A DNA stretch of 32,000 nt from Bacteroidota bacterium (GCA_017860275.1 JAFNAQ010000002.1:25089-57088), one strand, 5' to 3'. Positions 10,766 through 29,027 are shown, counted from the stretch's first letter. Notes: generated by a model from the sequence alone, not told the origin. Numbers and translations: made by a program.

Positions 10766-10774
10766 AAGTGAAAA

Positions 10775-10968
10775 ACGGTATCGCCAAACTTTTCACTATT
10801 AACTATTAACTTTTCACTTAATATGGCATCGCCCAAACTTTTAACTTTTAACTTTTAACTATTCACTACCCTGCTTTTACCTTTTTACTTGCTTTTCACT
10901 GCTTTTCACTCATCACTCTTAACTTTTCACTTAATACGGTCTTGATTTTTGCAACTTTGTATCAAGAC
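10775..10968. repeat. Full-length mosaic intergenic repeat (left copy), inverted relative to copies at 27723-27823 and 28891-29027
   Basis: 10852-10946 is the exact reverse complement of 28914-29008 (95/95 by hand alignment). 10775-10874 matches the reverse complement of 27723-27823 with 3 differences. The copy contains GGCGAT(G/A)CC cores and the hairpin gtcttgat-N14-atcaagac (10939-10968). Confidence 0.9.
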
Positions 10969-11043
10969 ACCCGAAGACCAAAGGTCGAGAGCCACGAAGT
11001 GAAAGTTGATAACAAAACGGAATAAAATAAAAAAATAAAAAAA

Positions 11044-12309
11044 ATGGATATAAAGATAGCAGTGATCGGTTTAGGTTATGTAGGCCTACCGCTTGCAAGG
11101 TTGTTCTCAACCAAATACTCAACCATAGGTTACGACATAAATAAAGCAAGAGTAGAGCGCCTAATGCAAGGCGTAGACGAAACCTTAGAAGTAGAAGACT
11201 CATTGCTTCAAGAAGCAATAGAAAAGCATAACTTTATCTGCACAACCAATCTTGATGCAATAAAAGAATGTAACTTCTTTGTAGTAACAGTTCCAACTCC
11301 AGTCGATAAACATAATAACCCAGACCTAACACCACTATACAAGGCATCCGAAACAGTAGGAAAGGTAATCAAAAAGGGAGATATAGTAGTGTATGAATCT
11401 ACCGTTTATCCAGGAGTAACAGAAGAAGAATGCTTGCCAGTAGTAGAAAGAATCTCAGGATTGAAATACAACCAAGACTTTTTCGCAGGCTACTCACCAG
11501 AAAGAATAAACCCAGGCGACAAAGAACACACAGTAGAAAAAATCCGCAAAGTAACTTCAGGCTCAACACCTGAAATAGCTACGATAGTAGACGATGTATA
11601 TAACTCAGTACTAATAAACGGAACACATCTAGCATCATCAATCCGAGTAGCAGAAGCATCGAAGATAATAGAAAACTCACAAAGAGACGTAAACATAGCC
11701 TTTATGAACGAGTTAGCAAAGATATTCAACGCAATGGGTATAGACACTAACGACGTAATAGAAGCAGCAGCATCGAAATGGAACTTCATTAAGCTAAAAC
11801 CAGGCTTAGTAGGAGGACACTGCATAAGCGTAGACCCATACTATCTAATCCAAAAAGCACAGATATATGGAGTCCTTCCAAGAATAATGTCCGATGCAAG
11901 ACGCCTCAACGACAATATGGGAGAATACGTAGCAAACCGTGTAATAAAACTAATGAACAAAAAAGGAGTAGTTGTAAAAGATGCAAATATCCTAATCTTA
12001 GGAATAACATTCAAAGAAAACTGCCCAGACATACGCAACACAAAGATAGTAGATATACACTCAACCCTAAGCGAGTACACAAGCAATATCACAATCTTCG
12101 ACCCATGGGCAAACAAAGAAGAAGTAAAACACGAATATAACGTAGAAATTACCAACATCCTACCAAAAGAAAGATTTGATGCTATTATTCTTGCAGTAGC
12201 ACACAATGAATTCTTAGAATTAAACCTAACAACTTTAAGAAAAGATAATAGTGTATTGTATGATGTAAAGAACATCTTACCAAAAGAAATGGTAGACGGA
12301 AGATTGTAA
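11044..12309 (+). CDS. Nucleotide-sugar dehydrogenase, TviB/WbpO/Cap5O-type (UDP-N-acetylhexosamine 6-dehydrogenase-like)
   Basis: 421 aa with the N-terminal Rossmann motif IAVIGLGYVGLPLA and the catalytic region GGHCISVDPYYL typical of this subfamily. Confidence 0.85.
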   Translation: MDIKIAVIGLGYVGLPLARLFSTKYSTIGYDINKARVERLMQGVDETLEVEDSLLQEAIEKHNFICTTNLDAIKECNFFVVTVPTPVDKHNNPDLTPLYKASETVGKVIKKGDIVVYESTVYPGVTEEECLPVVERISGLKYNQDFFAGYSPERINPGDKEHTVEKIRKVTSGSTPEIATIVDDVYNSVLINGTHLASSIRVAEASKIIENSQRDVNIAFMNELAKIFNAMGIDTNDVIEAAASKWNFIKLKPGLVGGHCISVDPYYLIQKAQIYGVLPRIMSDARRLNDNMGEYVANRVIKLMNKKGVVVKDANILILGITFKENCPDIRNTKIVDIHSTLSEYTSNITIFDPWANKEEVKHEYNVEITNILPKERFDAIILAVAHNEFLELNLTTLRKDNSVLYDVKNILPKEMVDGRL

Positions 12310-12347
12310 TTTAAAATTTATAATTTACAATTTAAAAGTTGAAGAAA

Positions 12348-12470
12348 ATCTTAGCCGTAGCCCATAACGAGTTCCTAGAACTAGACCTACGCTCAATGCT
12401 AAAATGTAGTGGAGTACTATACGACGTAAAAAACATCTTACCAAAAGAAATGGTTGATGGAAGATTGTAA
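12348..12470 (+). pseudogene. 3'-terminal remnant of a divergent dehydrogenase allele (40 codons + stop)
   Basis: Translates ILAVAHNEFLELDLRSMLKCSGVLYDVKNILPKEMVDGRL*. It differs from the intact gene end at 23 of 40 codons, 15 of them synonymous. Confidence 0.9.
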
Positions 12471-12508
12471 TTAAAAATTTATAATTTACAATTTAAAAGT
12501 TGAAGAAA

Positions 12509-12631
12509 ATCCTAGCCGTAGCCCATAACGAGTTTCTAGAACTAGACCTTCGCTCAATGCTAAAAGAAAACGGAGTATTATATGATGTAAAAAACATCTT
12601 ACCAAAAGAAATGGTTGACGGAAGATTGTAA
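12509..12631 (+). pseudogene. Second 3'-terminal dehydrogenase remnant
   Basis: Translates ILAVAHNEFLELDLRSMLKENGVLYDVKNILPKEMVDGRL* and is close to the first remnant. Confidence 0.9.
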
Positions 12632-12668
12632 TTTAAAATTTAAAACTTACAATTTAAAAGTTGAAGAA

Positions 12669-12686
12669 GGCGGAAGATTGGAATTT
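12669..12686 (+). pseudogene. Micro-remnant of the dehydrogenase stop region
   Basis: ggcggaagattggaattt matches gacggaagattgtaattt, with the stop mutated. It is flanked by the same spacer words. Confidence 0.5.
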
Positions 12687-12721
12687 AAACTTTTAAACTT
12701 AAAATTTAAAAGTTGAAGAAA

Positions 12722-12862
12722 ATTCTAGCAGTAGCACATAATGAATTAAAATCTTTAAACCTTAAAGAACATCAAAAACAATTATCAGTATTGTATGATG
12801 TAAAATCAGTAACGCTAAAGGAATTAATTGTCGAAATACATAAAACTAAATACTATAAATAA
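12722..12862 (+). pseudogene. Fourth, strongly divergent dehydrogenase 3' remnant
   Basis: Translates ILAVAHNELKSLNLKEHQKQLSVLYDVKSVTLKELIVEIHKTKYYK*. Its stop overlaps the ATG of the next ORF (TAATG). Confidence 0.8.
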
Positions 12863-13551
12863 TGAAGTTTGACGAATATAATATTAAAGCAAGAATTTTA
12901 CCTTCAATTATAATTTTGATACCTATATTGCTTTTTTTTAATAATTGCAAAATTGATAATATTCAAGTTGTTTTTAATAATCTATTAAGTGTAAAAATAA
13001 TTGGAAATGTTACTCTGTCTATTGCTCTACTATTTTTATTAGTGCAAGTTAATAGATATATTGGTAAGTATATTTTTGAAAAGAGAATGTATAAAAAAGA
13101 GCTGGACATGCCTACAACAATTTTTTTATTATATAGTAATTCCGAATTTTCTAAGGAATATAAAAACCGATTGAGAAAACAAATAGAAAATGATTTTTTT
13201 ATCATTTTACCAGATGAACAATTAGAAAATACAAACTTATTAGAAACAAAAAAAAGAATAATAGAAGCTGTTGGATTAATAAGACATAAAGTAAAAAATG
13301 GAAGGCTACTTTTACAGCATAATATCGAGTATGGTTTTTTTAGAAATTTTATAGGCGGTTCTATAATAGGTTTATTAATTTCTGCATTTAATATTTTTTA
13401 TTTTTACATTATCAATGACAAGTTAATATTTGGCATCAATATTGGATTATCTAGTCTATTTGCTTTACTTTTTATATTTCATCGTCCAATAATTATTAAT
13501 TTAGGTAATCAATATGCAAAAAGATTATTTCAAGAGTACTTAGCAAAATAA
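12862..13551 (+). CDS. Hypothetical 4-TM membrane protein with a ~100-aa charged central domain
   Basis: 229 aa with two N-terminal and two C-terminal hydrophobic helices. I recognise no family. The start is coupled to the preceding remnant. Confidence 0.6.
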   Translation: MKFDEYNIKARILPSIIILIPILLFFNNCKIDNIQVVFNNLLSVKIIGNVTLSIALLFLLVQVNRYIGKYIFEKRMYKKELDMPTTIFLLYSNSEFSKEYKNRLRKQIENDFFIILPDEQLENTNLLETKKRIIEAVGLIRHKVKNGRLLLQHNIEYGFFRNFIGGSIIGLLISAFNIFYFYIINDKLIFGINIGLSSLFALLFIFHRPIIINLGNQYAKRLFQEYLAK

Positions 13552-13567
13552 TTAAACATAAGTAATA

Positions 13568-14512
13568 ATGATTAAAATACATTTTATAAATGTTGGACAT
13601 GGAGACTGCATTGTAATTGAGTTTTGTGATAAATCTAGAATAGCAGTTGTAGATATAAATATGTCAAAAGAGATGGATAATGATTCGCAAAGTGAAGTAT
13701 TAAATGAATTAAATTCTTATGATAAGAATCATTATCAATCCCTCAATTTTTCAAATAGTCAAATATTTGAAAAAGCGGGTTATAATATCAATCTAACCAA
13801 CCCAATTGATTACATTAAGCAATTGACTAATGGTTCCATATTTAGATTTATTTCAACTCATCCACACCTAGACCATTTATCGGGATTAAGTGAATTAAAA
13901 TCGAGAGTTGGAATATTAAATTATTGGGTTGTTAATAATAAATTATTAGTAAATAGTTCCAATTTAAGCAATAGTCAAAATGAAGATTGGACTTTATATA
14001 AGAAGCTTAGAGATACGACAGAGCGAATACAAGATGGAATTACTATTGTAAAACCAAAGGAAGGTTCTAAAAATCAATATTGGATTGAAGATAATATTAC
14101 AATTTTATCACCAAATAATAAATTAGTAAAATTGGCTGAAGAAACGAATAGGCCGAATATAATGAGCTACGTGTTATTAATTAATTATGCTGGTCATAAA
14201 ATAATTTTAGGAGGTGATGCAGAAGATGAAACTTGGGAATATATATATAAAAATCATTCAGATTTAATAAAAGATGTTACTATTTTAAAAGCATCTCATC
14301 ATGGTAGAAACAGTGGGTATTATCAATCTGCAATTGAACTTATGAAACCTAAATACACGATTGTTTCAGTAGGAAAAAAGCCAGATACTGATGCTTCTAA
14401 CAAATATAGAAATTATTGTGAAAATGTATTGTCAACAAGGTGGATGGGAAATATTGTATTTGAAATTCATTCAAAAGGAGAGATAAAGTATTATTGTGAA
14501 CATAATCGTTAG
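13568..14512 (+). CDS. Stand-alone metallo-beta-lactamase-fold hydrolase, ComEC/Rec2 C-terminal-domain type (predicted nuclease)
   Basis: 314 aa with NVGHGD near the N-terminus, THPHLDH (HxHxDH), GGDAED and KASHHGR. This is the motif set of ComEC-like MBL domains. Confidence 0.75.
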   Translation: MIKIHFINVGHGDCIVIEFCDKSRIAVVDINMSKEMDNDSQSEVLNELNSYDKNHYQSLNFSNSQIFEKAGYNINLTNPIDYIKQLTNGSIFRFISTHPHLDHLSGLSELKSRVGILNYWVVNNKLLVNSSNLSNSQNEDWTLYKKLRDTTERIQDGITIVKPKEGSKNQYWIEDNITILSPNNKLVKLAEETNRPNIMSYVLLINYAGHKIILGGDAEDETWEYIYKNHSDLIKDVTILKASHHGRNSGYYQSAIELMKPKYTIVSVGKKPDTDASNKYRNYCENVLSTRWMGNIVFEIHSKGEIKYYCEHNR

Positions 14513-14808
14513 ATGTCAATTTCAATAATTATAATATATCATTTTGTAATATTATATAGAAATATTTCTAAGTAAAGTTTAATGAATTGGTAGTAGATTC
14601 ACATTCAAAGTTATCATTTGGAGTATATTATTTAAATAATCAATTTGTTCTAAAGAATCATTGGAAATTGAAATAATATACAATGATAGAAATTAAAAAC
14701 TTTCAGCAATAAACAAATACTGAATGAATCCAAAGCTAACTATCATATTTTATCTATACATATTAAAATATCAGAAAAAGACTGATATTATTAAATTAAT
14801 AATGCTTA

Positions 14809-16050
14809 ATGTCTATTCGAAAAAAACTCTCATATAATCTTTTAATTCAGGCAATAGGTCCTATTCTATCTTTTCTTACTATTTTTTTAATTGCAAGGAT
14901 TGGTGGACCCAAAACACAAGGTTATTATGCTAGTATATCTGCATGGATTAATTTTGCTGTAGTTGTTGGGATATTTGGGTTTCCCCAAAGCTTCATCTAT
15001 TTAATCAATAAGATGAATACCTCTCCTAAAATTTTGATTAAGGGGTCATATTTTTATTCTATTTTATTTTTATTACTATTTATACCTGTTATTTTTGTAT
15101 TAATAAGTAATAATCTTATTAATAGTATTGTAATTAGTACTAATATTCAAGTTTTTATTTTAGGTGTACCAATAGCAATACTAATCCTTCATGGTTTATT
15201 AAGAGGAATATATTTAACTTATAATCAAAGTATTTTATTTGCTATTTTTTCAATTTTGCCAGCTTGTATTCTTTTCTTATTTGTGTTTATTGGTTTGATT
15301 TTTAAATATCTTAATTTTCAATTGATATACCTCATTTCATCTATTCCATTATTAGTCATTATTATTTTAATGATGAGACCTCTGGTGAATGATAATAAAA
15401 ATAATGATTATATTAAAAAAATATCTTGGAAAATATTATTTAATCATGGAATAAATACATTTTTACAGGCTTTGTTTTTAGCATCACAACCGATAATAGC
15501 GTATTGGATAATCAATAAATATATTGGGGGAACTATTGAAATTGGTTATTTTAATTTAGGATTATTTTTAGTACAAGGATTATTAGTTCCAATAAGTATG
15601 ATTGCACCATTACTATTTGAACATTGGACAAAAAATAGTAATTATAGATCAATAGTAAAAATAAATAAATTCAAATTTTTTATTTTAGAGTTCATTTTGG
15701 GTTGTTTATTAGCCCTCTCTTTACAATATATAATTCCAATAATTTTTGGATTTGAGTACATAAAATCAATAAGAGTTGCTCAAATTCTAATAATAGCTAC
15801 TCCAATAATTTTTCATACTAGAATACTAATACCAGCAATTCATTCTAAAGGTCATCCTATTATTAATACTTATACTGGCTTCTTAAGATTAATTCTATTC
15901 GTTATTATATCTTATACATGGTTGAAATTAGTTGATCATGGATTAACTGGTTTAGCAATAGCTTGGTCATTGTCTGAGCTTATTGTTGCTGTAATATCAA
16001 TTATTTTATTTAATAAATTATTTAAAGATGAATATTTATATATTACTTAA
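14809..16050 (+). CDS. wzx: Second oligosaccharide flippase (Wzx-like, MOP superfamily)
   Basis: 413 aa with about 12 TM helices, very AT-rich, and followed by acetyltransferase and polymerase genes. Confidence 0.65.
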
Positions 16051-16600
16051 GAATATTTTGTCACTAATTATTTCATATACATATTATTTAATAGGGAATA
16101 TTAGAGCTAGTTTGCTTGGTGTTAAATTAGGAAGAGGAGCTAAAGTAAGCCCAAAATCTAAAATAAAAAATGCTTACTATATAGGAAATGCAACAATAGG
16201 TTCATCAGTCATTCTTGGTAATGGAAGTTATATTAATTCAGGTACGATTATGACAGGTGTAATTGGAAACTATTGTTCAATTGGTTATAATGTTATTATT
16301 GGACCTACAGAACATAATGTTGAATTTATTACAACTTCTCCTAGTCATGCTATAAGTCTTGGTTATAAATCCTCTATTGTAGAAAAATTTAAAAATCCAC
16401 CAAATATAGAAGATGAGGTTTGGATTGGAGCAAATGTAGTAATTTTAAAGGGTGTCAATATAGGTAATGGTGCTATTATTGCGGCTGGTGCTGTTGTAAC
16501 TAAAGATGTACCTAGTATGGAGATATGGGGTGGTGTACCAGCAAAATTTATAAAGAAGAGAGGGATTAAATATAACAATTATGCAGATGGATGTTTATAA
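16028..16600 (+). CDS. Left-handed beta-helix (hexapeptide-repeat) O-acetyltransferase
   Basis: [49 protein letters not shown] is a typical LbH acetyltransferase C-terminus. The ORF overlaps the previous gene by 23 nt. Confidence 0.85.
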
Positions 16601-17960
16601 TCAATTTTTTTCACTTATAGGATTAATCTTTTATATATTTAGCATATTTATATCTATCTTACTTGTTTCATCAAGTAAAAAGGATAAATACTCATTTAAA
16701 AATTTAACACCGATTTTTTTTATTTTAATTGTTGCACTATATGTATTGCCACTGTCACTTTTTAATTTTTCTCAATCCAATCCAATAGGAGATATTAGTC
16801 CTCAATTTTTCTCTTTTTCTCAATATATTCCTTATGCAAATATTTTATGTGCTGTTTTTAACATTACTTTTGTGTTCTTTTATAAAAAATTCACATTGTT
16901 TAAATGTTATTCAATGACTGTAAATACACAAAATAGAATAAAAAGATATGAATATTATATTATTTTTCTATTATTAATAATTTCTATCTTTATGCTTTTT
17001 CAATTAAGTAGAGAAGTTGGTGGTTTTCTTAACTTAATATTGTCTGGTTATGGAGTTACTAATCTATTTGTTGGTAAAAATCATTATGCAGTAGGTTTTG
17101 AATGGATAGTTTCATTAAGTATTATTTTATGGGGTAATGTATTATCAATAAAAAATAAAAAATATATATACATATACATGGTATTAATACTTATACTTTC
17201 TATTATTTTCTTTATCATGGGTAGAAGAGCTGTGTTGGTAATACTGATAGGAACTTCGGTGCTTTTATATTATCAACTGTACAAACGAATAAGTATTTTT
17301 AAATTATTATCTTTGTTTTCTCTTTGTTTCTATCTTTTAACTCTTAATGGTTTTTTAAGAGGCGACTCGTATGAAAACTTTTCATCATTATCTACTACCT
17401 TATATGAAAAGAAACAAAATATTGATAATGAGTCTTTGAATTATTTCTATACTTTGACTAGCGGAAATTTTGCAGTGCCCTATGAAACATTACCTCAAAT
17501 TGTTAAATCATTGGGTGTAGACTATAATTTAGGATTGGGTAAATATAGTTTTGGCCCTATTTCTGCTATTATTCCTAATGTCTTGTGGCCAGATAGACCT
17601 TTACCTCTCTCAAATTGGTATATGGCCACTTTTTATGATGTTAAGCGATTAAATGAAGGTCGTCAGTTTTTTTTATTAACTGCACCTTATATGGATTTTG
17701 GTCCAGCAGGAGTAATTTTGATTGGAATATTTTTTGCTTATTTCTGGGCAAATATTGTTAAAAGAGGTATTAAATACCACGATGATGTATTAGTAACTAT
17801 ATTAATAGCATTAGTTTTCTCAAATACTTTGAATATGGTATCTAATGATTTTTTAGGATGGGCAGTCGCTTTTTTTAAAGGTTATGGATTTCCTGTGATT
17901 ATTTTATTATTAATTAGAAAGATCAAATCAAATATTAAATATTATTTAAAGCTACGTTGA
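16581..17960 (+). CDS. wzy: O-antigen/capsule repeat-unit polymerase (Wzy-like)
   Basis: 459 aa with more than 10 TM helices and a large loop in the C-terminal half. It is extremely AT-rich, overlaps the acetyltransferase by 20 nt, and sits next to wzx. Confidence 0.6.
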
Positions 17961-18069
17961 TATAATTAATCGTTAGGTTTGGGAAAAAGGAATAAGTTAA
18001 TTAATATGTGTGATATATTTTGAATTAGTCTTTTGTTACCAATAAATTAAACCATAAAACCATACAATT

Positions 18070-18342
18070 ATGACCGACAAAGAAAAAATTGAAAAATTAG
18101 TCTCTATGGAAGTAGAGGATAAGATTAATGATCATTCTGCTGTTACTGTTAATATTTCTATCAGAGAGATTATGGCGGCTAAAGGTTTTTCAGAAGATAG
18201 GATTGAAGAGTTTATTCAAATATTTCAAGAGGAGATAGCAAGACTAATTGTTACAGATAGGGAAAAGTTTGACGATTTTATTAGGGAACTTAGTGGTATG
18301 GATAAAGATTGTAGGGTAGATATTGTTAAGGATGATTGCTAA
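18070..18342 (+). CDS. Hypothetical small acidic protein (90 aa)
   Basis: The ORF has G/T-skewed codon usage like the neighbouring real genes and is helical and acidic. I recognise no family. Confidence 0.45.
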   Translation: MTDKEKIEKLVSMEVEDKINDHSAVTVNISIREIMAAKGFSEDRIEEFIQIFQEEIARLIVTDREKFDDFIRELSGMDKDCRVDIVKDDC

Positions 18343-18668
18343 GATGAATTTCTAATTTTAAATTACAACTTTTAAATTACTCATTATCAACCTAAATATA
18401 TATTTATTTCTAGAAATTTAAAAGCGGTGTTGTTAAGATTATCAGGTATTTAATATTTAGATTAAAAAAAATATTAGAATAAAATTTTCGAATTAAATAA
18501 TAAATTAATTTATTCTCACGTTATATACTAAAATTTAGCGAAATTACCTGCATTTTTAATTATAAATTCAAGCAAAAATATAATTTGAGCAAGAGTTTAT
18601 AGATAAAAACTAAGGAAAAATAAAAATTAACCTTGAATTTTTGAATTAATACTTGATCTAAATACCTC

Positions 18669-18749
18669 AAAAATGGCACTTTTATATGCGAAAAATGGCA
18701 TTTTTGAATATTAAAAGTGGCACTTTTAAACCATGAAAATGGCACTTTT
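18669..18749. promoter_or_regulatory. Array of four 15-bp palindromic sites AAAA(A/G)TG-G-CA(C/T)TTTT at exact 22-bp spacing
   Basis: The sites lie at 18669-18683, 18691-18705, 18713-18727 and 18735-18749, with centres at 18676, 18698, 18720 and 18742. The array ends 54 nt upstream of the HU-like gene. Confidence 0.7.
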
Positions 18750-18802
18750 AGGGTAAAAAGACTTGATGTAAATGCAAAAATGCTTGATTAAATTTTGAAG
18801 AT

Positions 18803-19219: not shown

Positions 19220-19286
19220 ATAAAAATGCTACATAAATAAGGTGGCAGCTTAATTAAATATAATAATCAACTTAAAATTTCTGCTT

Positions 19287-19694: not shown

Positions 19695-19818
19695 TTCTTT
19701 TTGAGAGTTAAAAGCTAAAAACTAAAAGTGAAAAGCTTATAGTTGCGAGGTGAAAACCTAAAGACTAAAGTTAAAAGTCTAAGTTGAGAAATCAACAAGT
19801 AAGAAATCAAATAATACT

Positions 19819-19856
19819 AAGAGAAGCTCAAGGAAAGGGCTTCTCTTTGAGTTTAT
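19819..19856 (+). terminator. Stem-loop terminator after the HU-like pair
   Basis: aagagaagc (19819-19827) pairs with gcttctctt (19839-19847) around an 11-nt loop and is followed by tgagttt. Confidence 0.5.
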
Positions 19857-20129
19857 AGGAAGATAAATGACATTTAAATAAATTTGATACTCAATAAATT
19901 TATATATAATTGTTATTAATGTGATTATACTTTAATTGTATTGATAGAAGAATGGTTTCTATTGTAAAACTCTAAAATGTGATACTATATTATTTTATAA
20001 TTATATAAGCAGATTTTTATACATATCAGATATTTAATTATAAGTAGAATATTTATTTTAAAAGAATATACTAGTAAATAAGTGTCGTATATAGTGAGTT
20101 TTTAAGTTAAGGCAAAAAATAATTGTTCT

Positions 20130-21164: not shown

Positions 21165-21290
21165 AATAATTAAAAAATATTTTAGTGGATAACTTTTGAA
21201 TTTTAAAAAGAAATATAGAATTGTCTACTTTATTATTATAAAAATAGCAGTTAAGGTTAATGTAAATTAAAAGAAAAAAATAATAAATAT

Positions 21291-22601
21291 ATGAATATAG
21301 CAATTGTAGGTACAGGATATGTTGGATTAGTTTCTGGAACTTGTTTTGCAGAAATGGGAATCAATGTTACATGTGTAGATATTGATGAGGATAAGATTTC
21401 AAAACTTAAATTAGGATATATGCCTATTTTTGAGCCAGGCTTAGACGATATGGTTGTAAGGAACCATAAAGCTGGACGACTTAATTTTACAACTAATTTG
21501 ACTTCAGTATTGGATGATGTTGATGTTGTATTTAGTGCTGTTGGAACTCCACCCGACGAGGATGGTAGTGCTGATTTGCGATATGTTTTGGATGTAGCAA
21601 GAACTGTTGGAAAGAATATGAATAAGTATTTGGTATTCGTAACTAAAAGTACTGTGCCAGTTGGAACTGCAATAAAGGTTAAGGCTGCAATTCAAAAAGA
21701 GTTGGATAAACGAGGTTTAGATATTGAATTTGATGTTGCAAGTAATCCTGAATTTTTAAAAGAAGGGGCGGCAGTTCAAGACTTTTTACGACCAGACAGG
21801 GTTGTTGTAGGCGTTGAAACTGAAAGAGCTAAAGAAATACTAACAAGACTTTATAAGCCTTTTATGTTACAGAATAACCTAATGATATTTACAGATATTC
21901 CTTCTGCTGAAATGATTAAATATGCAGCAAATTCCATGTTAGCTACTCGTATTTCTTTTATGAATGATATTGCGAATCTTTGCGAACTTGTTGGTGCAGA
22001 CGTTAATATGGTTAGAAAAGGAATTGGTTCCGATACCAGAATTGGACAGAAATTCCTATATCCAGGTTGTGGATATGGTGGTTCTTGTTTCCCGAAGGAT
22101 GTAAAAGCATTAATTAAAACTGCACAGCATAATGGTTATGAAATGGAGGTGTTGCAAGCAGTTGAAAGAGTAAACGATAAACAAAAATCAATCCTTTTCA
22201 ATAAATTACATAAACACTTTCAAGGTGTATTAAAAGGAAAAACCATATCAATTTGGGGTCTTAGTTTTAAGCCTGAAACAGATGATATGAGAGAAGCACC
22301 TTCATTGGTATTAATTGATTTACTTCTTCAAGCAGGTTGCAAAGTAAAAGTCTATGATCCAATCTCAATGGAAGAATGCAAAAGAAAAATTGGAGATAAA
22401 GTAATTTATTCCAAGGATATGTATGAAGCAACAGTAGATTCAGATGCTTTAATGTTAGTTACAGAATGGAAAGAATTCCGAGTACCAAGCTGGGATGTAT
22501 TAAAGAAATCAATGAATAACTATTTTGTATTTGATGGAAGGAATATATATGATTCTAAGGAATTAATTGAAAAAGGATTTGTTTATTATAAGATTGGATA
22601 A
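21291..22601 (+). CDS. ugd: UDP-glucose 6-dehydrogenase
   Basis: 436 aa with the N-terminal IAIVGTGYVGLVSG motif and the catalytic GYGGSCFPKD motif. Confidence 0.92.
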   Translation: MNIAIVGTGYVGLVSGTCFAEMGINVTCVDIDEDKISKLKLGYMPIFEPGLDDMVVRNHKAGRLNFTTNLTSVLDDVDVVFSAVGTPPDEDGSADLRYVLDVARTVGKNMNKYLVFVTKSTVPVGTAIKVKAAIQKELDKRGLDIEFDVASNPEFLKEGAAVQDFLRPDRVVVGVETERAKEILTRLYKPFMLQNNLMIFTDIPSAEMIKYAANSMLATRISFMNDIANLCELVGADVNMVRKGIGSDTRIGQKFLYPGCGYGGSCFPKDVKALIKTAQHNGYEMEVLQAVERVNDKQKSILFNKLHKHFQGVLKGKTISIWGLSFKPETDDMREAPSLVLIDLLLQAGCKVKVYDPISMEECKRKIGDKVIYSKDMYEATVDSDALMLVTEWKEFRVPSWDVLKKSMNNYFVFDGRNIYDSKELIEKGFVYYKIG

Positions 22602-22607
22602 ATAATT

Positions 22608-23363
22608 ATGGAAGATTATGGTTTAGTTTCTATTATAATGCCTTCTTATAATTCATCAAGATTTATTGATGAATCTATTGATTCCGTTCTATCACAAACT
22701 TATCAAAATTGGGAATTATTAATTACTGATGATTGTTCAACAGATAATACTATTGAAATAATAAATGAATATATTCAAAAAGACAATAGAATAAAAATAT
22801 TTAAACATAATATCAATTCTGGTGCAGCTATTGCTAGAAATAATTCAATTGAAAAGGCAAATGGAAAATTTCTAGCTTTTTTAGATAGTGATGATTTATG
22901 GTACCCAAATAAATTAGAATTACAATTAGAATTTATGAATAAAAATAAAATTGCCTTTTCATGTTCTAATTATGATCAAATTTATGAAAATGGAGAGTTT
23001 AATAATATAATAATAAAAGTACCTAATATCATTTCATATTATGAATATCTTAAAAATACTATAATTGGTTGTTTAACCGTAATCATTGATAAATCTATTG
23101 TAGGTGATTTTAGAATGCCAAATATTAAAAGTAGCCATGATATGGCCTTATGGTTATTGATTCTTAAAAAAGGATATAACTGTTTTGGCTTAAATAAAAC
23201 CCTAGGGACTTATAGATTGGTTTCAAATTCTAATACTGCAAAAAAAGGAAAGGCAGCAAAGGATGTGTGGAAAGTCTATAGAGAGATAGAAAACTTAAAT
23301 ATTATTTTTTCTTCATATTGTTTTATGTTTTATGTAATTAATGCCATTAAAAAAAGGATATAA
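22608..23363 (+). CDS. Glycosyltransferase family 2
   Basis: VSIIMPSYNSSRFIDESIDSVLSQTYQNWELLITDDCSTDNT and the FLDSDD motif. Confidence 0.88.
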   Translation: MEDYGLVSIIMPSYNSSRFIDESIDSVLSQTYQNWELLITDDCSTDNTIEIINEYIQKDNRIKIFKHNINSGAAIARNNSIEKANGKFLAFLDSDDLWYPNKLELQLEFMNKNKIAFSCSNYDQIYENGEFNNIIIKVPNIISYYEYLKNTIIGCLTVIIDKSIVGDFRMPNIKSSHDMALWLLILKKGYNCFGLNKTLGTYRLVSNSNTAKKGKAAKDVWKVYREIENLNIIFSSYCFMFYVINAIKKRI

Positions 23364-23407
23364 TTGTAATTTATTTTGTCTTTAAATTATTAAAAAATTA
23401 ATCTATT

Positions 23408-24598
23408 ATGAATTACGCAGATTTTGTTGGTTTCGTTCGCGAGACTTTTGATGATAGGGATGGTTATATTATACTTCATGATCCTCGTTTTGTTGGGAAT
23501 GAGAGGAAGTATATTATGGATGCTATGGATTCAAATTTTGTTTCCAGTGTAGGTGAATATGTGAATAAGTTTGAGAAGGCTGTTGCTGACTTCACAGGTA
23601 GTAAATATGCAGTGGCTGCTGTTAATGGTACTTCGGCTTTGCATATTTGTATGCTTTTGGCAGGTGTACGTCCTGGTGAGGAAGTTATTACTCAACCTAT
23701 ATCTTTTATAGCTACCTGCAATGCCATCACTTATACTGGTGCAAATCCAGTTTTTGTAGATGTTTCTCGTTCAACTATGGGTATGTGCCCAATTAAGCTT
23801 GAAGAGTTTCTAAAGGAAAATGTACGCAAAGGTGCTGATGGGAATTCATATAATAATAAAACAGGAAAACGTTTTGCTGCTGTTGTTCCTATGCATACCT
23901 TCGGTCATCCTTGTGAGATTGATGCAATTGCTGATATTTGCCAGAGGTATAATATTCCTTTGGTTGAAGATGCTGCTGAAAGTATTGGCTCCTATTATAA
24001 AGGAAAGCATACTGGTTTATTTGGTAAACTTAGTGCCTTAAGTTTTAATGGTAATAAGGTTATTACTACTGGTGGTGGTGGAATGATTTTGACTGATGAT
24101 GAAGAACTTGCTAAAAGAGCTAAACATATTACAACAACTGCTAAGGTTCCTCATAAGTGGGAGTATAATCATGATTATACTGGTTATAATTATCGTCTAA
24201 CAAATCTTGCTGCTGCTTTGGGTCTTGGTCAGATTGAACAATGTGAGTTCTTTATTGGCGAAAAACGTAAGCTAACGGATAAGTATATTACTTTCTTTAA
24301 GGATAATAAAGATATTGAGTTTTTTGTTGAATCTAATGATTCCCGTTCTAATTATTGGCTTAATGCTGTTATTCTAAAGGACAGGGCTTCAAGAGACGAG
24401 TTTCTTACCTATACTAATGATAATGGAATTATGACTCGTCCTATTTGGGTATTAAATAATAAACTTGATATGTATAAGGGCTGCCAATGTGGTGACCTTT
24501 CAAATTCTCAGTGGCTTGAAGATAGGGTTGTGAATATTCCTAGTACAGTTATTATTCCAAATTACTACGAAAATATTCAAAAAGGAGTTTATAGGTAA
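23408..24598 (+). CDS. DegT/EpsN/PglE-type PLP aminotransferase (UDP-4-keto-6-deoxy-HexNAc 4-aminotransferase type)
   Basis: 396 aa with VEDAAESIG and LSFNGNKVITTGGGGMI (PLP lysine). It is adjacent to the CapD-like dehydratase and the initiating transferase. Confidence 0.85.
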   Translation: MNYADFVGFVRETFDDRDGYIILHDPRFVGNERKYIMDAMDSNFVSSVGEYVNKFEKAVADFTGSKYAVAAVNGTSALHICMLLAGVRPGEEVITQPISFIATCNAITYTGANPVFVDVSRSTMGMCPIKLEEFLKENVRKGADGNSYNNKTGKRFAAVVPMHTFGHPCEIDAIADICQRYNIPLVEDAAESIGSYYKGKHTGLFGKLSALSFNGNKVITTGGGGMILTDDEELAKRAKHITTTAKVPHKWEYNHDYTGYNYRLTNLAAALGLGQIEQCEFFIGEKRKLTDKYITFFKDNKDIEFFVESNDSRSNYWLNAVILKDRASRDEFLTYTNDNGIMTRPIWVLNNKLDMYKGCQCGDLSNSQWLEDRVVNIPSTVIIPNYYENIQKGVYR

Positions 24599-24609
24599 AA
24601 ATCATTTTT

Positions 24610-25818
24610 ATGTTGAATGTAAATAATTTTATATCAAAACATATTACCCATAGGGTGGAGAGTATGTTTTTGAAAGATATTGAGAAAAATAGAGAGGCAT
24701 TAACTCAGGAGATTCAAGGTAAATCTGTTTTGGTTATTGGTGGGGCTGGTACTATTGGCTCTTCTTATATTCGTGCGATTTTGCCTTTTAAGCCAAGTAA
24801 ATTGGTTGTTGTTGATATTTCTGAGAATGGTTTAACAGAGCTTACTCGTGATCTTCGTTCTACTTATGGTATGTTTGTTCCGGAGGATTATAGAACTTAT
24901 CCACTTAGTTTTGCTGATCCTATTTTTGAAAAGATTTTTAGAAATGAGGGTGGTTTTGATATTGTGGCTAATTTTTCTGCTCATAAACATGTTAGAAGTG
25001 AGAAGGATCAGTATTCTGTGGCTGCATTGATAGAAAACAATGTTCTTAAAGCGAGAAAACTTTTAGACCTTTTGTCAGAGATTCCTCCTAAGCATTTTTT
25101 CTGTGTTTCGACCGATAAGGCTGCTAATCCTGTAAATATTATGGGTTGTAGTAAGAAAGTTATGGAGGAGATGATTATGTCTTATTCTAATAAGTTTAAG
25201 GTTACTACTGCTCGTTTTGCTAATGTTGCTTTCTCTAATGGCTCTTTGCTTGCAGGTTTTATTGAGAGATTAATGAAGCATCAGCCACTAAGTGCTCCTT
25301 GTGATGTGAAGCGTTATTTTGTTTCTCCTGATGAGAGTGGTCAGATTTGTATGCTGGCTTGTGTATTGGGGAAGAGTGGTGAAATATTCTTTCCAAAATT
25401 GGGTGAGGAAGATATGATGACATTTTCTTCTATTGCCGATAAGTTCTTAGGTGAGCTTGGTTATGAGATTAAATATTGCTCATTGGAAGAAGAAGCTAGG
25501 GAGTTTGCATATAAGATGCCAGAGAATACGGATACTTATCCTGTATATTATTTCGGTTCTGATACTACTGGAGAAAAGGGCTTTGAGGAATTCTTTATTA
25601 AGGGTGAGTCATTAAATATGGAGAGGTTTTCTTCTCTTGGTGTGATTGAGGAGTATCCTGCACGACCTATTTCTGATATTGATATATTCTTTACAAAGAT
25701 GAGTGAGCTTCTTTCTCGTAGTGATATGACTAAGGGCGATATTGTTATTCTTTTAAAAGATTTTATCCCTAACTTTGAACATGAGGAAAAAGGGAAAAAC
25801 CTAGACTCAAAAATGTGA
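24610..25818 (+). CDS. CapD/PglF/EpsC-like NDP-sugar 4,6-dehydratase, short soluble form
   Basis: VLVIGGAGTIGSS Rossmann motif and VSTDKAANPVNIMGCSKKVME active-site region. It lacks the N-terminal TM region of the long forms. Confidence 0.8.
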   Translation: MLNVNNFISKHITHRVESMFLKDIEKNREALTQEIQGKSVLVIGGAGTIGSSYIRAILPFKPSKLVVVDISENGLTELTRDLRSTYGMFVPEDYRTYPLSFADPIFEKIFRNEGGFDIVANFSAHKHVRSEKDQYSVAALIENNVLKARKLLDLLSEIPPKHFFCVSTDKAANPVNIMGCSKKVMEEMIMSYSNKFKVTTARFANVAFSNGSLLAGFIERLMKHQPLSAPCDVKRYFVSPDESGQICMLACVLGKSGEIFFPKLGEEDMMTFSSIADKFLGELGYEIKYCSLEEEAREFAYKMPENTDTYPVYYFGSDTTGEKGFEEFFIKGESLNMERFSSLGVIEEYPARPISDIDIFFTKMSELLSRSDMTKGDIVILLKDFIPNFEHEEKGKNLDSKM

Positions 25819-25822
25819 TCTT

Positions 25823-26512
25823 ATGTATAAGTTAATTAAAAGAATTTTTGATATTACAATGTCTTTATTGGCATTATTGGTGTTTTCTCCTTTATTGGTT
25901 CCTATTGTTATTGGCTTGCTTTTGACTGGGGAACATTATGTTTTCTATTTTCAAGAACGTATTGGTAAGGGAGGAAAGAGTTTTAATGTATGGAAGTTTG
26001 CTACCATGCTTAAAAATAGTCCTAATATGGGTACGGGGAGTATTACTACACGAAAAGATCCACGAGTGCTACCAATGGGTAGGTTTCTTCGTAAAACTAA
26101 AATCAATGAAATACCTCAGTTAATTAATATATTAATTGGTAATATGTCATTTGTTGGTCCTAGACCATTAATGCAATGTGATTATAATACATATAATCAA
26201 TATGTAAAAGATAGAGTTATTAAGTCTAAACCTGGACTCTCTGGAATAGGTTCAATTGTGTTTAGAGATGAAGAGTACCATGTGTCTTTAGCTAAAGATT
26301 CAGTTTTGTTTTATCAAAATTATATTCAACCTCATAAGGGAGAACTAGAGGTTTGGTATTTTAATAATCGTAATCTATGGGTAGACTTTATGATTATTTT
26401 CCTAACGGTTTGGGTCATTCTTTTTCCTAAAAGTGATTTAGTATATAAGGTTTTTCCCACGTTACCAAGAATGGATTTTGAAAAAGCTGTAGTGGAATTT
26501 AATAAAAAGTAA
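25823..26512 (+). CDS. Small monotopic phosphoglycosyl (bacterial sugar) transferase, PglC/WcfS/EpsL-like initiating enzyme
   Basis: 229 aa with an N-terminal re-entrant helix, then KFATM and RFLRKTKINEIPQLINILIGNMSFVGPRP. Confidence 0.88.
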   Translation: MYKLIKRIFDITMSLLALLVFSPLLVPIVIGLLLTGEHYVFYFQERIGKGGKSFNVWKFATMLKNSPNMGTGSITTRKDPRVLPMGRFLRKTKINEIPQLINILIGNMSFVGPRPLMQCDYNTYNQYVKDRVIKSKPGLSGIGSIVFRDEEYHVSLAKDSVLFYQNYIQPHKGELEVWYFNNRNLWVDFMIIFLTVWVILFPKSDLVYKVFPTLPRMDFEKAVVEFNKK

Positions 26513-26532
26513 AAAATCAATTTAAATATATA

Positions 26533-27585
26533 ATGACAAATAATATTTGTGTTTTGATTATGGCTGGAGGTTCTGGGGAGAGGTTCTGGCCATTATCTAC
26601 TAAAAAGAGACCTAAGCAGTTATTGCGTTTGATTGATTCTGAGAGGAGTTTGATTCGTATGACTGTGGATAGGGTTTTGGATATTGTGAGCCAGGATAGG
26701 ATTTTTGTTGGAACTAATGCTCTTCAGGATGAGGGTGTGTTGGAGGAGTTGCCTATGTTGAGTGTGGAGAATATTATTATTGAACCTGCTTTTAGGGATA
26801 CTGCTGCTGCTATTGGTTTTGGTTCTTTGGTTATTAATAACAGGTTTAAGGATGCTTCTTTAATTGTTTTGGCTTCTGATCATTTGATTAAGGACGAAGA
26901 AAACTTTAGAGAAATTTTACTTAAGGCTGTGGATATTGCTTCTAAGGTTGATTCTATTATTACCTTGGGTATTAAACCTAATAGAGCTGAGACTGGTTAT
27001 GGTTATTTGGAGACGGATTCTTTTGAGGTGGGTAAAGAGAGTAGGGTTATTCGTTTTTGTGAGAAGCCTAATGCTGATTTAGCAAAGCAATATGTTGATT
27101 CGGGTAGATTTTTATGGAATAGTGGAATGTTTGTTTTTAATATTAATACTATTTTTTCTGCCTTCAAGGATTTAATGCCTAATCATTATAGGATTTTGAA
27201 TCAGATTAAGCTTTTGGGCTCAGAGATAAGGAATCCTGAGAATGAGGTTTTGATGAAATGGTTTATGGAGTTTGAGAAGGTTTCTATCGATTATGGGATT
27301 ATGGAAAAATACCATAATACTATGGTTATTCCTACCGATTTTGGTTGGAATGATATTGGTTCTTATCCTGCCTTGGAAGAGGTGTTTGAGGGTGATGAGA
27401 ATGGGAATATTGTTAAGGGAACTTCTCTTAAACAATTCGACTCTAAAAATAATATAATAATAAGTGCTAATGGTAAGAATATTTCTATTGTAGGCGTTGA
27501 GGGTTTGATTATTGTAGAGGGCGAGAATGATATTTTGATTTGCTCTAAAAAATCTGCTCAAGAGATTAAAAAAGTTATTTCTTAG
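26533..27585 (+). CDS. manC: Mannose-1-phosphate guanylyltransferase (no isomerase domain)
   Basis: 350 aa with VLIMAGGSGERFWPLS and GYGY, giving NTP-transferase architecture. Confidence 0.85.
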   Translation: MTNNICVLIMAGGSGERFWPLSTKKRPKQLLRLIDSERSLIRMTVDRVLDIVSQDRIFVGTNALQDEGVLEELPMLSVENIIIEPAFRDTAAAIGFGSLVINNRFKDASLIVLASDHLIKDEENFREILLKAVDIASKVDSIITLGIKPNRAETGYGYLETDSFEVGKESRVIRFCEKPNADLAKQYVDSGRFLWNSGMFVFNINTIFSAFKDLMPNHYRILNQIKLLGSEIRNPENEVLMKWFMEFEKVSIDYGIMEKYHNTMVIPTDFGWNDIGSYPALEEVFEGDENGNIVKGTSLKQFDSKNNIIISANGKNISIVGVEGLIIVEGENDILICSKKSAQEIKKVIS

Positions 27586-27668
27586 GTTTCATCCACTGAT
27601 TATTTTCTTTTTGCCCACAGATTTACACAAATTTGCCCGGATATTTTTTTATTTGTCCACGTATTTTT

Positions 27669-27823
27669 CTACTTATTTTTACCTTGATGCAAAAGCAATG
27701 CTTCGCAAGTTAAAAGGTAATAGCAGGGTAGTGAATAGTTAAAAGTTAAAAGGTAAAAGTTTGGGCGATGCCATATTAAGTGAAAAGTTAATAGTTAATA
27801 GTGAAAAGTTTGGGCGATGCCGT
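27669..27823. repeat. Mosaic intergenic repeat, right copy A (inverted relative to 10775-10874)
   Basis: gcagggtagtgaatagttaaaag...tttgggcgatgccatattaagtgaaaag...tttgggcgatgccgt matches the left copy with 3 differences in ~100 bp. It is preceded by the module ctacttatttttaccttgatgcaaaag, which is shared with 28879-28905. Confidence 0.9.
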
Positions 27824-27897
27824 ATGTTTTTTAGTTTGATACTTTTTACTTTTAGTTTGCAATTTAAAATTTAAAACTTACAATTAGAAAAAAAGTT

Positions 27898-27905
27898 TAT
27901 CTTTG
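27898..27905 (+). promoter_or_regulatory. TAnnTTTG -7 box for the two-gene cassette
   Basis: TATCTTTG lies 22 nt upstream of ATG 27927. Confidence 0.4.
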
Positions 27906-27926
27906 CAAAATCAAAATATTAATGTT

Positions 27927-28169
27927 ATGGGACAATTTAGATTAAATGAAAAAAGTAGGAGGTCTATTGAAAAAAAGACTGGACTTACATTTGATGAATT
28001 GATTTCTAAAGATGCAGAGACTATTGATTCTATTATTGAGGATAAGATAGGTAAAAAATTGAAAAATAGATATAAGATTGGTGATTTTGTGGCTCGTGGT
28101 TCTGTTTATATTTTTCTTAAAAGATTAATTAGTAAAAGGGATATTGATTCTGTTTTATCTAAAATATAG
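27927..28169 (+). CDS. Hypothetical small basic protein (80 aa)
   Basis: I prefer ATG 27927 because the track's TTG start at 27903 lies inside the promoter box. The ORF is 5 nt from the next ORF. I recognise no family. Confidence 0.45.
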   Translation: MGQFRLNEKSRRSIEKKTGLTFDELISKDAETIDSIIEDKIGKKLKNRYKIGDFVARGSVYIFLKRLISKRDIDSVLSKI

Positions 28170-28174
28170 ATGTT

Positions 28175-28813
28175 TTGAATAGTCTTCATTCTGATAAAAT
28201 TTCTGATTTATATAATACTTACAATGAGGTTATAAAACCTCTTATTGCGTTGTATGAGGCAAGGGAAGAGGTGTTCCCCATTCCTTTGTTTAATGAGATT
28301 CGGGCTTTTAATGATCATATTGCTCGATGTTTTATACCTAGTTCTTCTGATTATCAAATTGAAAACGAGCTTTTTCGTGCTGAAAGGCATATTAATAGAA
28401 TAGTCTTGGATTGTTATAAGTATCTAAATGTTTCGTTTTATGTGGAGGTTAAGTCTTTTGAAAGTAGAACTAAACATGTGGATTTAACTGTTTTGGATAA
28501 TGGCTTATTTTATCCAAAGTTTTTGGAGCTTAAAAATAATGCTGTCAAATTAATTAGAAGGGCAAAGAAGAATGAATCACTTAAGCTTGATGAATCATTT
28601 AATGATTATCAAAATGCGTATAATGTTTATTCTGAACTTTCTGATTTGATAAATAGTAGGAGTAGTGAGGTTAATTGGGCTCGTGTTAGATTTTCTGTGT
28701 TCACTCTTTTAAAGGTGATGGCTTGGGTTGTTGGTGCTGTTCTTTCTGGTTTAATATCATTGTTTCTTACTTGTGAAGAAGTAAAATCTATTATCATAAA
28801 GATTTTTTATTAG
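28175..28813 (+). CDS. Hypothetical helical protein with a single C-terminal TM anchor (212 aa)
   Basis: TTG start 5 nt after the upstream stop. The C-terminus FSVFTLLKVMAWVVGAVLSGLISLFLT is hydrophobic, and one Rx4H string (RAFNDH) is present. I recognise no family. Confidence 0.5.
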   Translation: MNSLHSDKISDLYNTYNEVIKPLIALYEAREEVFPIPLFNEIRAFNDHIARCFIPSSSDYQIENELFRAERHINRIVLDCYKYLNVSFYVEVKSFESRTKHVDLTVLDNGLFYPKFLELKNNAVKLIRRAKKNESLKLDESFNDYQNAYNVYSELSDLINSRSSEVNWARVRFSVFTLLKVMAWVVGAVLSGLISLFLTCEEVKSIIIKIFY

Positions 28814-28842
28814 TTTTTCTCTAAACTTTTTATTTTGTGTCT

Positions 28843-29027
28843 CTTGATAGAAAAGTAACAAAATATCAAAACTTTTTCTACTTACTTTTACCTTGATGCA
28901 AAAGTAACAAAATATCAAGACCGTATTAAGTGAAAAGTTAAGAGTGATGAGTGAAAAGCAGTGAAAAGCAAGTAAAAAGGTAAAAGCAGGGTAGTGAATA
29001 GTTAAAAGGTAAAAGGTAAAAGTTTTT
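28843..29027. repeat. Mosaic intergenic repeat, right copy B (inverted relative to 10835-10968)
   Basis: It contains two cttgat..atcaag hairpin modules (28844-28869 and 28892-28919). These are followed by 95 bp identical to the reverse complement of 10852-10946. Confidence 0.92.

Follow-up and report, generated by a model that had tools for sequence, protein, structure and literature searches.

Inverted repeats around a polysaccharide region of an uncultured Bacteroidales bacterium as probable variant copies of a conserved structured intergenic unit

Introduction

Polysaccharide loci of Bacteroides are well known for their control by DNA inversion, as described in PMC11685472, and the locus treated here raises the question whether long, identical inverted repeats on its two sides form such a switch or have another origin. 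In the present study a stretch of 32,000 nt from a Bacteroidota bacterium (GCA_017860275.1, JAFNAQ010000002.1:25089-57088), called the window in the following, was analysed. It derives from a metagenome-assembled genome (MAG), and within it a 95-nt tract in front of a UDP-sugar dehydrogenase gene returns about 18 kb downstream as its exact reverse complement, as was pointed out in an initial annotation. Related Bacteroidales loci and contigs, MAGs among them, were used for comparison and are referred to by number (L003, L004, L005, L020 etc.).

The answer we favour, with a probability of roughly 0.55, is that the three long repeats of the window are variant copies, particular to this lineage, of a structured intergenic unit that is conserved and punctuates the pyrBI-rml-dehydrogenase region in a small clade of uncultured Bacteroidales. 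Reversible inversion, mobility, an assembly artefact and antisense control were considered as alternatives and are weighed where the evidence bears on them.

Results

Identity of the long repeats

Direct comparison confirmed that 10852-10946 and the reverse complement of 28914-29008 agree at 95 of 95 positions, and the exact match could not be extended by a single base at either end; with mismatches permitted, the repeat search widened the pair to 10835-10950/28910-29025 (116 nt, 97%). The three differences ascribed to 10775-10874 and the reverse complement of 27723-27823 proved to be two mismatches and one 1-base indel, within a wider second pair of 123 nt and 93% identity (10784-10906/27691-27813). 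These pairs, separated by 16.8 and 18.0 kb, connect a left copy (10775-10938, plus strand) with two right-hand copies on the minus strand, R1 (7-nt block at 27691-27825) and R2 (95-nt tract at 28914-29008, an exact 31-mer repeat interval). R1 and R2 are direct repeats of each other on either side of a two-gene cassette (27927-28813) and differ from the left copy as two different deletion variants, just as had been supposed. The 23-nt sequence GCAGGGTAGTGAATAGTTAAAAG, a core shared by the copies, is present in the window three times and no more (10852-10874, minus; 27723-27745, plus; 28986-29008, plus) and had no match in dinucleotide shuffles, even at three mismatches.

Tandem Repeats Finder showed a 7-nt periodicity in all three copies, which are built of degenerate 7-nt repeats (AACTTTT, CACTATT, AACTATT etc.), and it reported a 49-nt period in R1, corresponding to a higher-order duplication of 49 nt. 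Since the order of variant repeats is common to the three long copies, they are copies of one another and not separate expansions. The left copy, which contains two GGYATCGCC mini-hairpin motifs in addition to the core, is a mosaic that matches R1 at 97 of 100 positions (10775-10874) and R2 at 95 of 95 (10852-10946). Sharp-edged identical tracts in otherwise diverged homologues are the usual trace of conversion or recombination, and we therefore prefer to derive the 95/95 identity from a recent event of this kind between the copies, a reading drawn from three copies. Recent copying or gene conversion, as proposed before, is thus the most economical explanation of a tract with such abrupt ends. 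The inverted relationship follows from the position of the right-hand copies on the opposite strand and gives no evidence of an invertible segment between them.

Structure and conservation of the canonical unit

The unit to which the repeats belong was found by searching related loci with the spacer sequences, which revealed homology at the repeat flanks and none in the 7-nt cores. It measures ~185 nt and consists of three parts: the motif ACGGCATCGCCC with a GGC/GCC mini-hairpin, an imperfect hairpin of ~125 nt that leads into a U-rich stretch, and a second hairpin, which has ATCAAG as its invariant loop and GAACAGTCTTGAT in front of it. Its ends form 17-nt terminal inverted arms, GACATTTTAAAATTACC and GACTGTTCAAAATTACC, which match at 14 of 17 positions; the 7-nt block has no inverted termini.

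Units of the window are 90-94% identical to those of L004 or L020. For the genes beside them (dehydrogenase, rmlB and KilA-N) identity amounts to 72-91%, or 57-78% when third codon positions are counted; a narrower range of 72-81% (57-64% at third positions) was also recorded for flanking genes. The parent unit is consequently more conserved between genomes than the neighbouring genes, and the earlier description of the repeats as neutral non-coding DNA did not hold. Across 14 aligned copies 98.2% of the pair cells were standard, and 16 pairs had changed on both sides, compared with 4.7 +/- 1.5 in shuffles (none of 500 reached 16) and two to six in slid controls; the second hairpin is present in at least seven compensated versions. 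The forward strand folded better than the reverse strand by 6.5-18 kcal/mol in 10 of 10 copies, as is expected if G-U pairs matter. Copies at orthologous positions resemble each other more than copies of one genome do (94.5% between L004a and L005a, 90.1% between L004a and L004b), which indicates that the copies are old and stable.

Most canonical copies contain a perfect match to TTTG-N19-TAnnTTTG, which reaches from the foot of the long hairpin into the 5' arm of the second one and lies 22-60 nt 5' of the next gene. Scans for sigma-70 promoters and terminators gave no enrichment over shuffles and were non-discriminating in such AT-rich DNA. A coding function of the long hairpin was rejected because of frame-shifting indels between copies. 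Covariance models of Rfam 15 produced no match with E <= 1 at 10.7-11.1 kb and 27.6-30.6 kb except a chance-level mir-335 (10733-10821), and the ~185-nt unit appears to be undescribed.

The minisatellite in the place of the long hairpin

In canonical units the long hairpin sits between ...GGCATCGCCCAAAC(C) and GTCTTGAT. The 7-nt block occupies the identical slot in the left copy, R1 and R2, all of which start past GGYATCGCCCAAAC and stop at CGGTCTTGAT, the anchors of the long hairpin. Because the block fills the slot between the same anchors, the repeats originally reported are understood as variant units in which a minisatellite replaces the long hairpin, with a GGCATCGCC mini-hairpin on one side and a GTCTTGAT...ATCAAG hairpin on the other.

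What surrounds the block differs from copy to copy. On the left it is followed by a hairpin module of variant form (10939-11007, plus strand), composed of GTCTTGAT-N14-ATCAAGAC at 10939-10968, with 8-bp arms enclosing only 14 nt and a loop that contains CAACTTTG, and of the tail ACCCGAAGACCAAAGGTCGAGAGCCACGAAGTGAAAG. The module ends 36 nt 5' of the dehydrogenase ATG (11044) and is 90% identical to L005 9087-9153, its tail being 95% identical to L020 8126-8166; the loop is of the L004c/L084 type, the tail of the L005b type, the pairing of the second hairpin is lost, and the score against the covariance model is weak (11.5 bits). The hairpin with a TTTG-type box facing the dehydrogenase, to which attention had been drawn, thus belongs to a conserved module, in which relatives carry a full TTTG-N19-TAnnTTTG match of the Bacteroidetes type, directed at the dehydrogenase. 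R1 retains the 3' half of a hairpin module H1 (27657-27715, minus; 14.7 bits), the 5' half having been deleted between two CTTTT microhomologies. R2 comprises two tandem modules, H2 then H1 (28843-28925, minus; 43.5 bits), which face the 3' end of the cassette, and beyond the 95-nt tract the rest of its 7-nt block and a complementary T-rich run (29009-29082) together make a local hairpin.

There follows on the minus strand a truncated canonical unit (29067-29184; 21.4 bits; nhmmer E = 3e-22, model positions 2-96) that keeps the GGCATCGCC motif and, of the long hairpin, the apex and the 5' arm, and in which the 7-nt block stands where the 3' arm would be; it is a 91% direct repeat of 30417-30518. 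The only complete canonical unit of the window is R3 (30317-30505, minus; 195.9 bits, E = 4e-40), which possesses the GGCATCGCC motif, the long imperfect hairpin and the hairpin with loop ATCAAG, and is 94% identical to L020 9540-9726.

An A-rich 7-nt run (10741-10774, plus; period 7 in Tandem Repeats Finder) overlaps the stop codon of the open reading frame (ORF) for a Schlafen/AlbA_2 protein and acts as the 5' arm of an imperfect local hairpin in the minimum-free-energy fold, with the T-rich block 10836-10870 as its partner; a 91% copy of the run lies at 19701-19734. When whole spacers were folded as RNA only the left one stood out (z = -3.4), and values for R1, R2 and R3 ranged from -0.05 to -2.1. 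With 15% of the window non-coding, 8 of 10 occurrences of GTGAAAAG are intergenic, on the side just past a stop codon, and all 10 of its complement CTTTTCAC are intergenic, in the half preceding the next gene start. Runs of 7-nt repeats in spacers are shared by relatives, including a pure (CACTATT)n array that opens L072.

Distribution of the unit and the question of mobility

A 19-mer that is invariant in five seed copies and present in 12 of 14 later-aligned copies served as a probe for the unit. Its scan of 241 million metagenome records yielded 16 contigs, eight with unrelated coding matches and eight with true units, and every one of the latter carries rmlB, KilA-N or the dehydrogenase. 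With the covariance model two to seven copies or fragments per locus were detected in L004, L005, L020, L084, L088, L089, L091 and L095-L098, with top scores of up to 223 bits, and none in L003 and L007-L009; two patterns gave no match in viral contigs. As far as the window and the scanned collections show, the unit is not a dispersed high-copy repeat. Nor does the inverted pair bracket one locus specifically, as the initial annotation had it: related modules lie at every module junction of the right end (27.6, 28.8-29.2 and 30.3-30.5 kb), and in relatives between rmlB, KilA-N and dehydrogenase.

These data bear on the possibility that the block is a small non-autonomous mobile element, comparable to a MITE (miniature inverted-repeat transposable element) or to repetitive extragenic palindromes (REP) and bacterial interspersed mosaic elements (BIME), which recently transposed into three sites. 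Near-identical copies in both orientations in non-coding DNA, the inverted arms at the ends of the canonical unit and a mosaic, modular construction that recalls BIMEs and BOX elements would all suit such an element. However, the arms belong to the canonical unit and are missing from the block, no copy shows a target-site duplication, and the flanks are the conserved GGCATCGCC and GTCTTGAT anchors; three copies in the same slot between the same anchors point to conversion between homologous units and not to insertion into new targets. Moreover, the 23-mer core had no match in public genome, metagenome and viral contig collections, the closeness of orthologous-position copies speaks for age and stability, and there is no transposase gene in the window. 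Recent transposition is therefore improbable, and of the two classes formerly suggested, MITE and REP-like, neither applies in its classical form, since neither target-site duplication nor dispersal was detected.

Orientation of the units

In relatives, complete units point the same way as the genes beside them, and so does the left copy of the window. All genes of the window are encoded on the plus strand, and the right-hand modules on the minus strand face back into the locus, as had been noted. In L099, which stems from another sample, a hairpin module on the minus strand comes after the same two-gene cassette, and minus-strand tail remnants do so in L100 and L101; owing to this recurrence the reversed placement is not peculiar to the assembly of the window.

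From their orientation the modules might be working antisense promoters or leaders that silence or tune the two-gene cassette and the KilA-N/PDC-S22 gene. The better-folding strand of the unit is the minus strand in R1-R3, H1 carries TACTTTTG at 28899-28906 (minus), the anti-oriented module or its remnant recurs in L099, L100 and L101, and upstream of R2 and R3 alike the minus strand has a conserved motif, ATAAAGTTTGAAGTT.... Yet R2 has the 7-nt block in place of a -33 element, the -7 box of R3 reads TAACTTTT and not TAnnTTTG, and consensus matches occur at chance frequency in the AT-rich window, so that antisense control is considered unlikely.

Reliability of the assembly

The window is part of a MAG contig of 319,678 bp, and perfect identity or linkage across repeats might be an artefact of short-read metagenome assembly, in which a node is traversed twice, variants are merged or contigs are mis-joined. 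A de Bruijn node traversed both ways necessarily gives a perfect inverted repeat, and contigs of an independent Logan assembly of the same run (SRR10861756), which agree with the window at 100% over 22277-27751, 27784-28903 and 28979-32000, are interrupted within R1 and around the 95-nt tract of R2, with all breaks except one at places predicted by exact 31-mers of the window. Because of these breaks, independent confirmation does not extend to the inside of the right-hand 95-nt tract or to any part of the left copy. Nevertheless, the independent contigs agree at 100% with the unique flanks on both sides of R1, R2 and R3, the repeats differ in a structured way outside the exact tracts, the left junction and the module after the cassette have counterparts in relatives, and the arrangement of hairpin after cassette is also found in the different sample of L099. 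An artefact is accordingly regarded as very improbable.

Inversion and the skew boundary

The same 95-nt pair could be the working substrate of a reversible inversion of ~18 kb, either homologous or site-specific, which would make the locus phase-variable by exchanging the sequence upstream of the dehydrogenase operon. Perfectly identical inverted arms of 95 nt are long enough for RecA-dependent recombination, inversion is an established mode of control in Bacteroides polysaccharide loci, and an inversion here would set the truncated unit and its upstream motifs (29067-29254, minus) before the dehydrogenase, resembling the order of unit and dehydrogenase in relatives. Physically possible as it is, the inversion suggested by the initial annotation is unsupported. 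None of the 30 ORFs of the window that were scanned against Pfam contained a serine or tyrosine recombinase domain, though a recombinase could be encoded elsewhere in the genome. The order and strand of pyrBI, rmlB and dehydrogenase are the same in six relatives with synteny, in three of which the HU pair follows on that strand; the single orientation was found among relatives and the inverted state was not seen. In addition, the pair is not unique, like modules being present at 27.7 and 30.4 kb, and the boundary in codon-position skew lies just past the dehydrogenase and not at the repeats. A functional invertible segment is for these reasons quite unlikely, and variant copies of a junction unit are preferred.

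Skew at third codon positions is extreme and gene-specific, and its boundary separates two groups of genes. From rmlB to the dehydrogenase, most genes have C>G and A>T at third positions, with a third-position GC skew down to -0.5, the Schlafen gene being an exception; from 12.9 kb on, G>C and T>A prevail, and the GC skew rises to +0.7 in full-length genes and to +1.0 in the 80-codon ORF of the cassette. A switch past the dehydrogenase recurs in relatives, and in L003 and L006 it is mainly the dehydrogenase that is affected. A replication origin was rejected as its cause, because in L003 and L006 reversed skew is limited to the dehydrogenase and a few others, and flanking genes are normal; the switch reflects gene origin or codon usage instead.

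Next to this boundary, 12190-12862 contains four consecutive versions of the dehydrogenase's last ~39 codons: the one at 12190-12309 is the functional end, and behind it come remnants at 12354-12470, 12515-12631 and 12728-12862, the last of which is divergent and abuts the next gene start at 12862. An AT-rich palindrome, TTGTAA-N16-TACAAT, stands after the first three of these ends, and a fourth copy (12675-12714) precedes the last remnant. The series, which coincides with the switch in composition, looks like stacked remains, deposited each time the downstream gene block was replaced or integrated anew at the 3' end of the dehydrogenase.

Gene context and accessory cassettes

The window opens with pyrB, pyrI, an EamA transporter, rmlA, rmlB, a flippase, an aminotransferase, WbqC and a GT56-like transferase, continues with a Schlafen/AlbA_2-HATPase-HTH protein, the left repeat and the UDP-sugar dehydrogenase (11044-12309), and then contains ~15 kb of polysaccharide genes with an HU-like gene pair inside, before R1, the two-gene cassette, R2, KilA-N, R3 and an MFS transporter complete it. 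The best matches of the dehydrogenase, in MAGs at 84-91%, assign the window to uncultured Bacteroidales; for the exact dehydrogenase and Schlafen proteins no record was found.

The cassette between R1 and R2 (27927-28813, plus) encodes proteins of 80 and 212 aa, neither of which had a match in Pfam, PADLOC or PHROG. The two genes are conserved as a pair, with 229 homologues at E <= 1e-3, and in several Bacteroidales (L099-L105) they recur at the close of polysaccharide loci, straight behind the final gene; many homologues are located on contigs of ~1 kb, as if flanked by repeats. The second cassette (29477-30289, plus), lying between two minus-strand units, holds a gene with a Pfam KilA-N domain that matches the PADLOC candidate defence family PDC-S22 (E = 7e-130). 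It is 69% identical to L020 8654-9472, and homologues are also found in L089 and L098. In these three relatives KilA-N is situated between two co-oriented units directly 5' of the dehydrogenase. The window has it 18 kb downstream, with a unit of opposite orientation on each side, a local arrangement confirmed by the independent contig over 28979-32000. Units therefore mark junctions where accessory cassettes occur and across which these have moved. One or two homologous inversions, or excision of a circle with re-integration, were rejected as routes for KilA-N, as no simple path gives its orientation relative to the flanking units.

Several other features of the region were observed. Defence-like genes are interspersed among the polysaccharide genes (9386-10765, 12862-14512 and 29477-30289); they include the Schlafen/AlbA_2 protein (9386-10765), with weak matches to Argonaute-associated and CARF models, and a metallo-beta-lactamase-fold protein (13568-14512) matching PDC-M48B (E = 2e-24). 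Inside the Schlafen/AlbA_2-HATPase-HTH ORF a perfect 12-nt tandem repeat, GAAAAGAGTACG x 6.6 (10514-10592), codes for (EKST)n, a candidate length-variable linker. Iteron-like direct repeats of 22 nt (AAAAATGGCACTTTTAAATAAT x 3.7, 18669-18750) and 23 nt (AAATTTGCACAATGAAATACCT x 2.6, 29278-29336) precede the first HU-like gene and KilA-N, respectively, and are possible operator arrays. Between the units 5' of the dehydrogenase, relatives have a GC-rich palindromic repeat, GTTAACCCCTAAATCCCCTAAAGGGGACTT ... CCCTTTAGGGGTCAGGGGTA (L004 9560-9700; L005 9390-9530 and 9830-9920; L020 8230-8300 and 9780-9890), which is absent from the window.

Discussion

The repeats of the window are best accounted for by a unit that has its own history at the junctions of gene modules. 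In the course of events proposed here, a degenerate 7-nt minisatellite would have replaced the long hairpin between the same two anchors in this genome, and the resulting variant unit now lies at three junctions, one upstream of the dehydrogenase and one on either side of the two-gene cassette. The variant may have spread as copies of the unit recombined or underwent gene conversion, with the conserved flanks as anchors, a process that would have left behind the identical 95-nt tract and the mosaic left copy. The units could serve as intergenic punctuation, a terminator-like hairpin combined with a start signal for the next module, and as shared homology they may let accessory cassettes shuffle.

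Conservation, covariation, the strand bias in folding and the stability of orthologous copies argue for a functional unit, and its role, judged from sequence features, might be that of a terminator-like hairpin with start signal, of a regulatory RNA or of homology for recombination. It is possible, and put forward tentatively, that the unit, from which the repeats derive, is an undescribed structured RNA or single-strand DNA element, confined to a clade of uncultured Bacteroidales, which controls read-through or initiation where polysaccharide-synthesis modules and small defence-like cassettes meet and also provides the homology for cassette mobility, and that the 95-nt pair could occasionally invert the 18 kb and exchange the control region before the dehydrogenase operon.

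Several observations weigh against an interpretation as variant copies of a functional punctuation unit. Folding gave weak thermodynamic z-scores (-0.05 to -3.4), one divergent copy (L004 11313-11492) supplies much of the covariation in helix 2, and a transcription start within the second hairpin is hard to reconcile with the covariation there; the -33/-7 promoter consensus of Bacteroidetes was not enriched in the window compared with shuffles. The anti-orientation of R1, R2 and R3 is not explained by punctuation. The 7-nt block has no homologue outside the window, and its spread is deduced from three copies only. Finally, one Logan contig (L001) ends at 28903, 40 nt earlier than predicted from the repeats of the window, which suggests that other sequence in SRR10861756 shares the 30-mer TTTTCTACTTACTTTTACCTTGATGCAAAA, either a further copy of the hairpin module elsewhere or a strain variant.

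If the unit is functional, it would represent a new cis-acting element of regions for surface polysaccharides and defence cassettes, in a poorly known branch of uncultured Bacteroidales that lacks the UpxY and invertible-promoter logic of gut Bacteroides, and it would explain how accessory cassettes such as KilA-N/PDC-S22 change position. A practical lesson for the reading of genomes is that conversion between junction elements can produce long perfect inverted repeats on either side of a locus, with no switch needed, and that metagenome assemblies are at their least reliable in just these repeats.

Among known systems, the invertible promoters of Bacteroides (Mpi/Tsr) come to mind first, as they also belong to Bacteroidales, place inverted repeats beside polysaccharide loci and have a promoter-like box between short inverted arms. 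According to PMC11685472 and PMC8748976, a dedicated recombinase flips a few hundred bp between repeats of ~15-30 bp. In contrast, the long repeats described here are 18 kb apart, the 8-bp arms of the hairpin enclose 14 nt, and the window lacks a recombinase, so that spacing and recombinase both speak against a promoter of the Bacteroides type.

Leaders of the ops/opsX-UpxY kind (PMC11685472) and the eps-associated RNA (EAR) of Bacillales are similar in being conserved, non-coding and hairpin-containing just 5' of polysaccharide genes, and in relatives the unit is likewise co-oriented with the operon, R1-R3 of the window being anti-oriented. However, the window has no gene for a NusG paralogue (NusG or KOW domain), and the motif YGCGNAGCR occurs twice (27699-27707, minus; 30782-30790, plus) with 0.35 expected, a number reached by 7 of 100 shuffles and thus barely above chance; on these two grounds an ops/UpxY leader was rejected. 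The sequence TGCGAAGCA fits this consensus of the non-template opsX hairpin in Bacteroides and equals the core of the B. fragilis PSE ops (CTGCGAAGCATA). The first site belongs to R1, and at the corresponding position the other two copies have CTTTTCACT; the second comes right after a TAACTTTG box in the MFS leader. EAR RNA had no Rfam match at 10.7-11.1 kb or 27.6-30.6 kb. An integron attC array was excluded as well, there being no integrase, and by inspection the unit termini GACATTTT... and ...GAACAGTC misfit the core sites RYYYAAC/GTTRRRY.

BrickBuilt, a MITE of Porphyromonas gingivalis that contains a minisatellite of 23-nt GC-rich repeats, is ~1.3 kb long and dispersed genome-wide. It resembles the elements of the window as an intergenic element of Bacteroidales in which a short tandem array is combined with a flanking inverted structure, and promoter activity has been reported for it. 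Repeats of P. gingivalis are discussed in PMC5771137. Classification of the window elements themselves as MITEs was rejected for want of target-site duplications, and no dispersal was detected in the collections scanned. Enterobacterial repetitive intergenic consensus (ERIC) sequences and the Correia elements of Neisseria are imperfect palindromes of ~125-155 nt with inverted termini, which form a transcribed hairpin and may have promoter elements facing a neighbour, and our unit would be similar in these respects; both exist as tens to hundreds of dispersed copies and show TA target duplications. The unit differs from them in that neither duplication nor dispersal was detected and in its additional conserved second hairpin.

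The BIME/REP and BOX families are mosaic intergenic repeats of Enterobacteria and pneumococci. Like the units described here they are modular, intergenic and hairpin-forming, occur in both orientations at the ends of genes and operons, and gain, lose and recombine their modules. The window elements differ in their low copy number within one chromosomal region, as far as tested, in their richness in AT and in the 7-nt minisatellite (for a general review of repeats of this type see PMC3184786). They are also much longer than REPs, ~35-nt GC-rich palindromes of high copy number associated with a tyrosine transposase (RAYT): they measure 100-190 nt and have a GC content of ~0.3. There is no sequence similarity to the BIME/REP and BOX families, and no RAYT-type or other transposase gene was seen in the window. 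In their behaviour the elements come closest to mosaic intergenic repeats of the BIME, BOX, ERIC and Correia kind.

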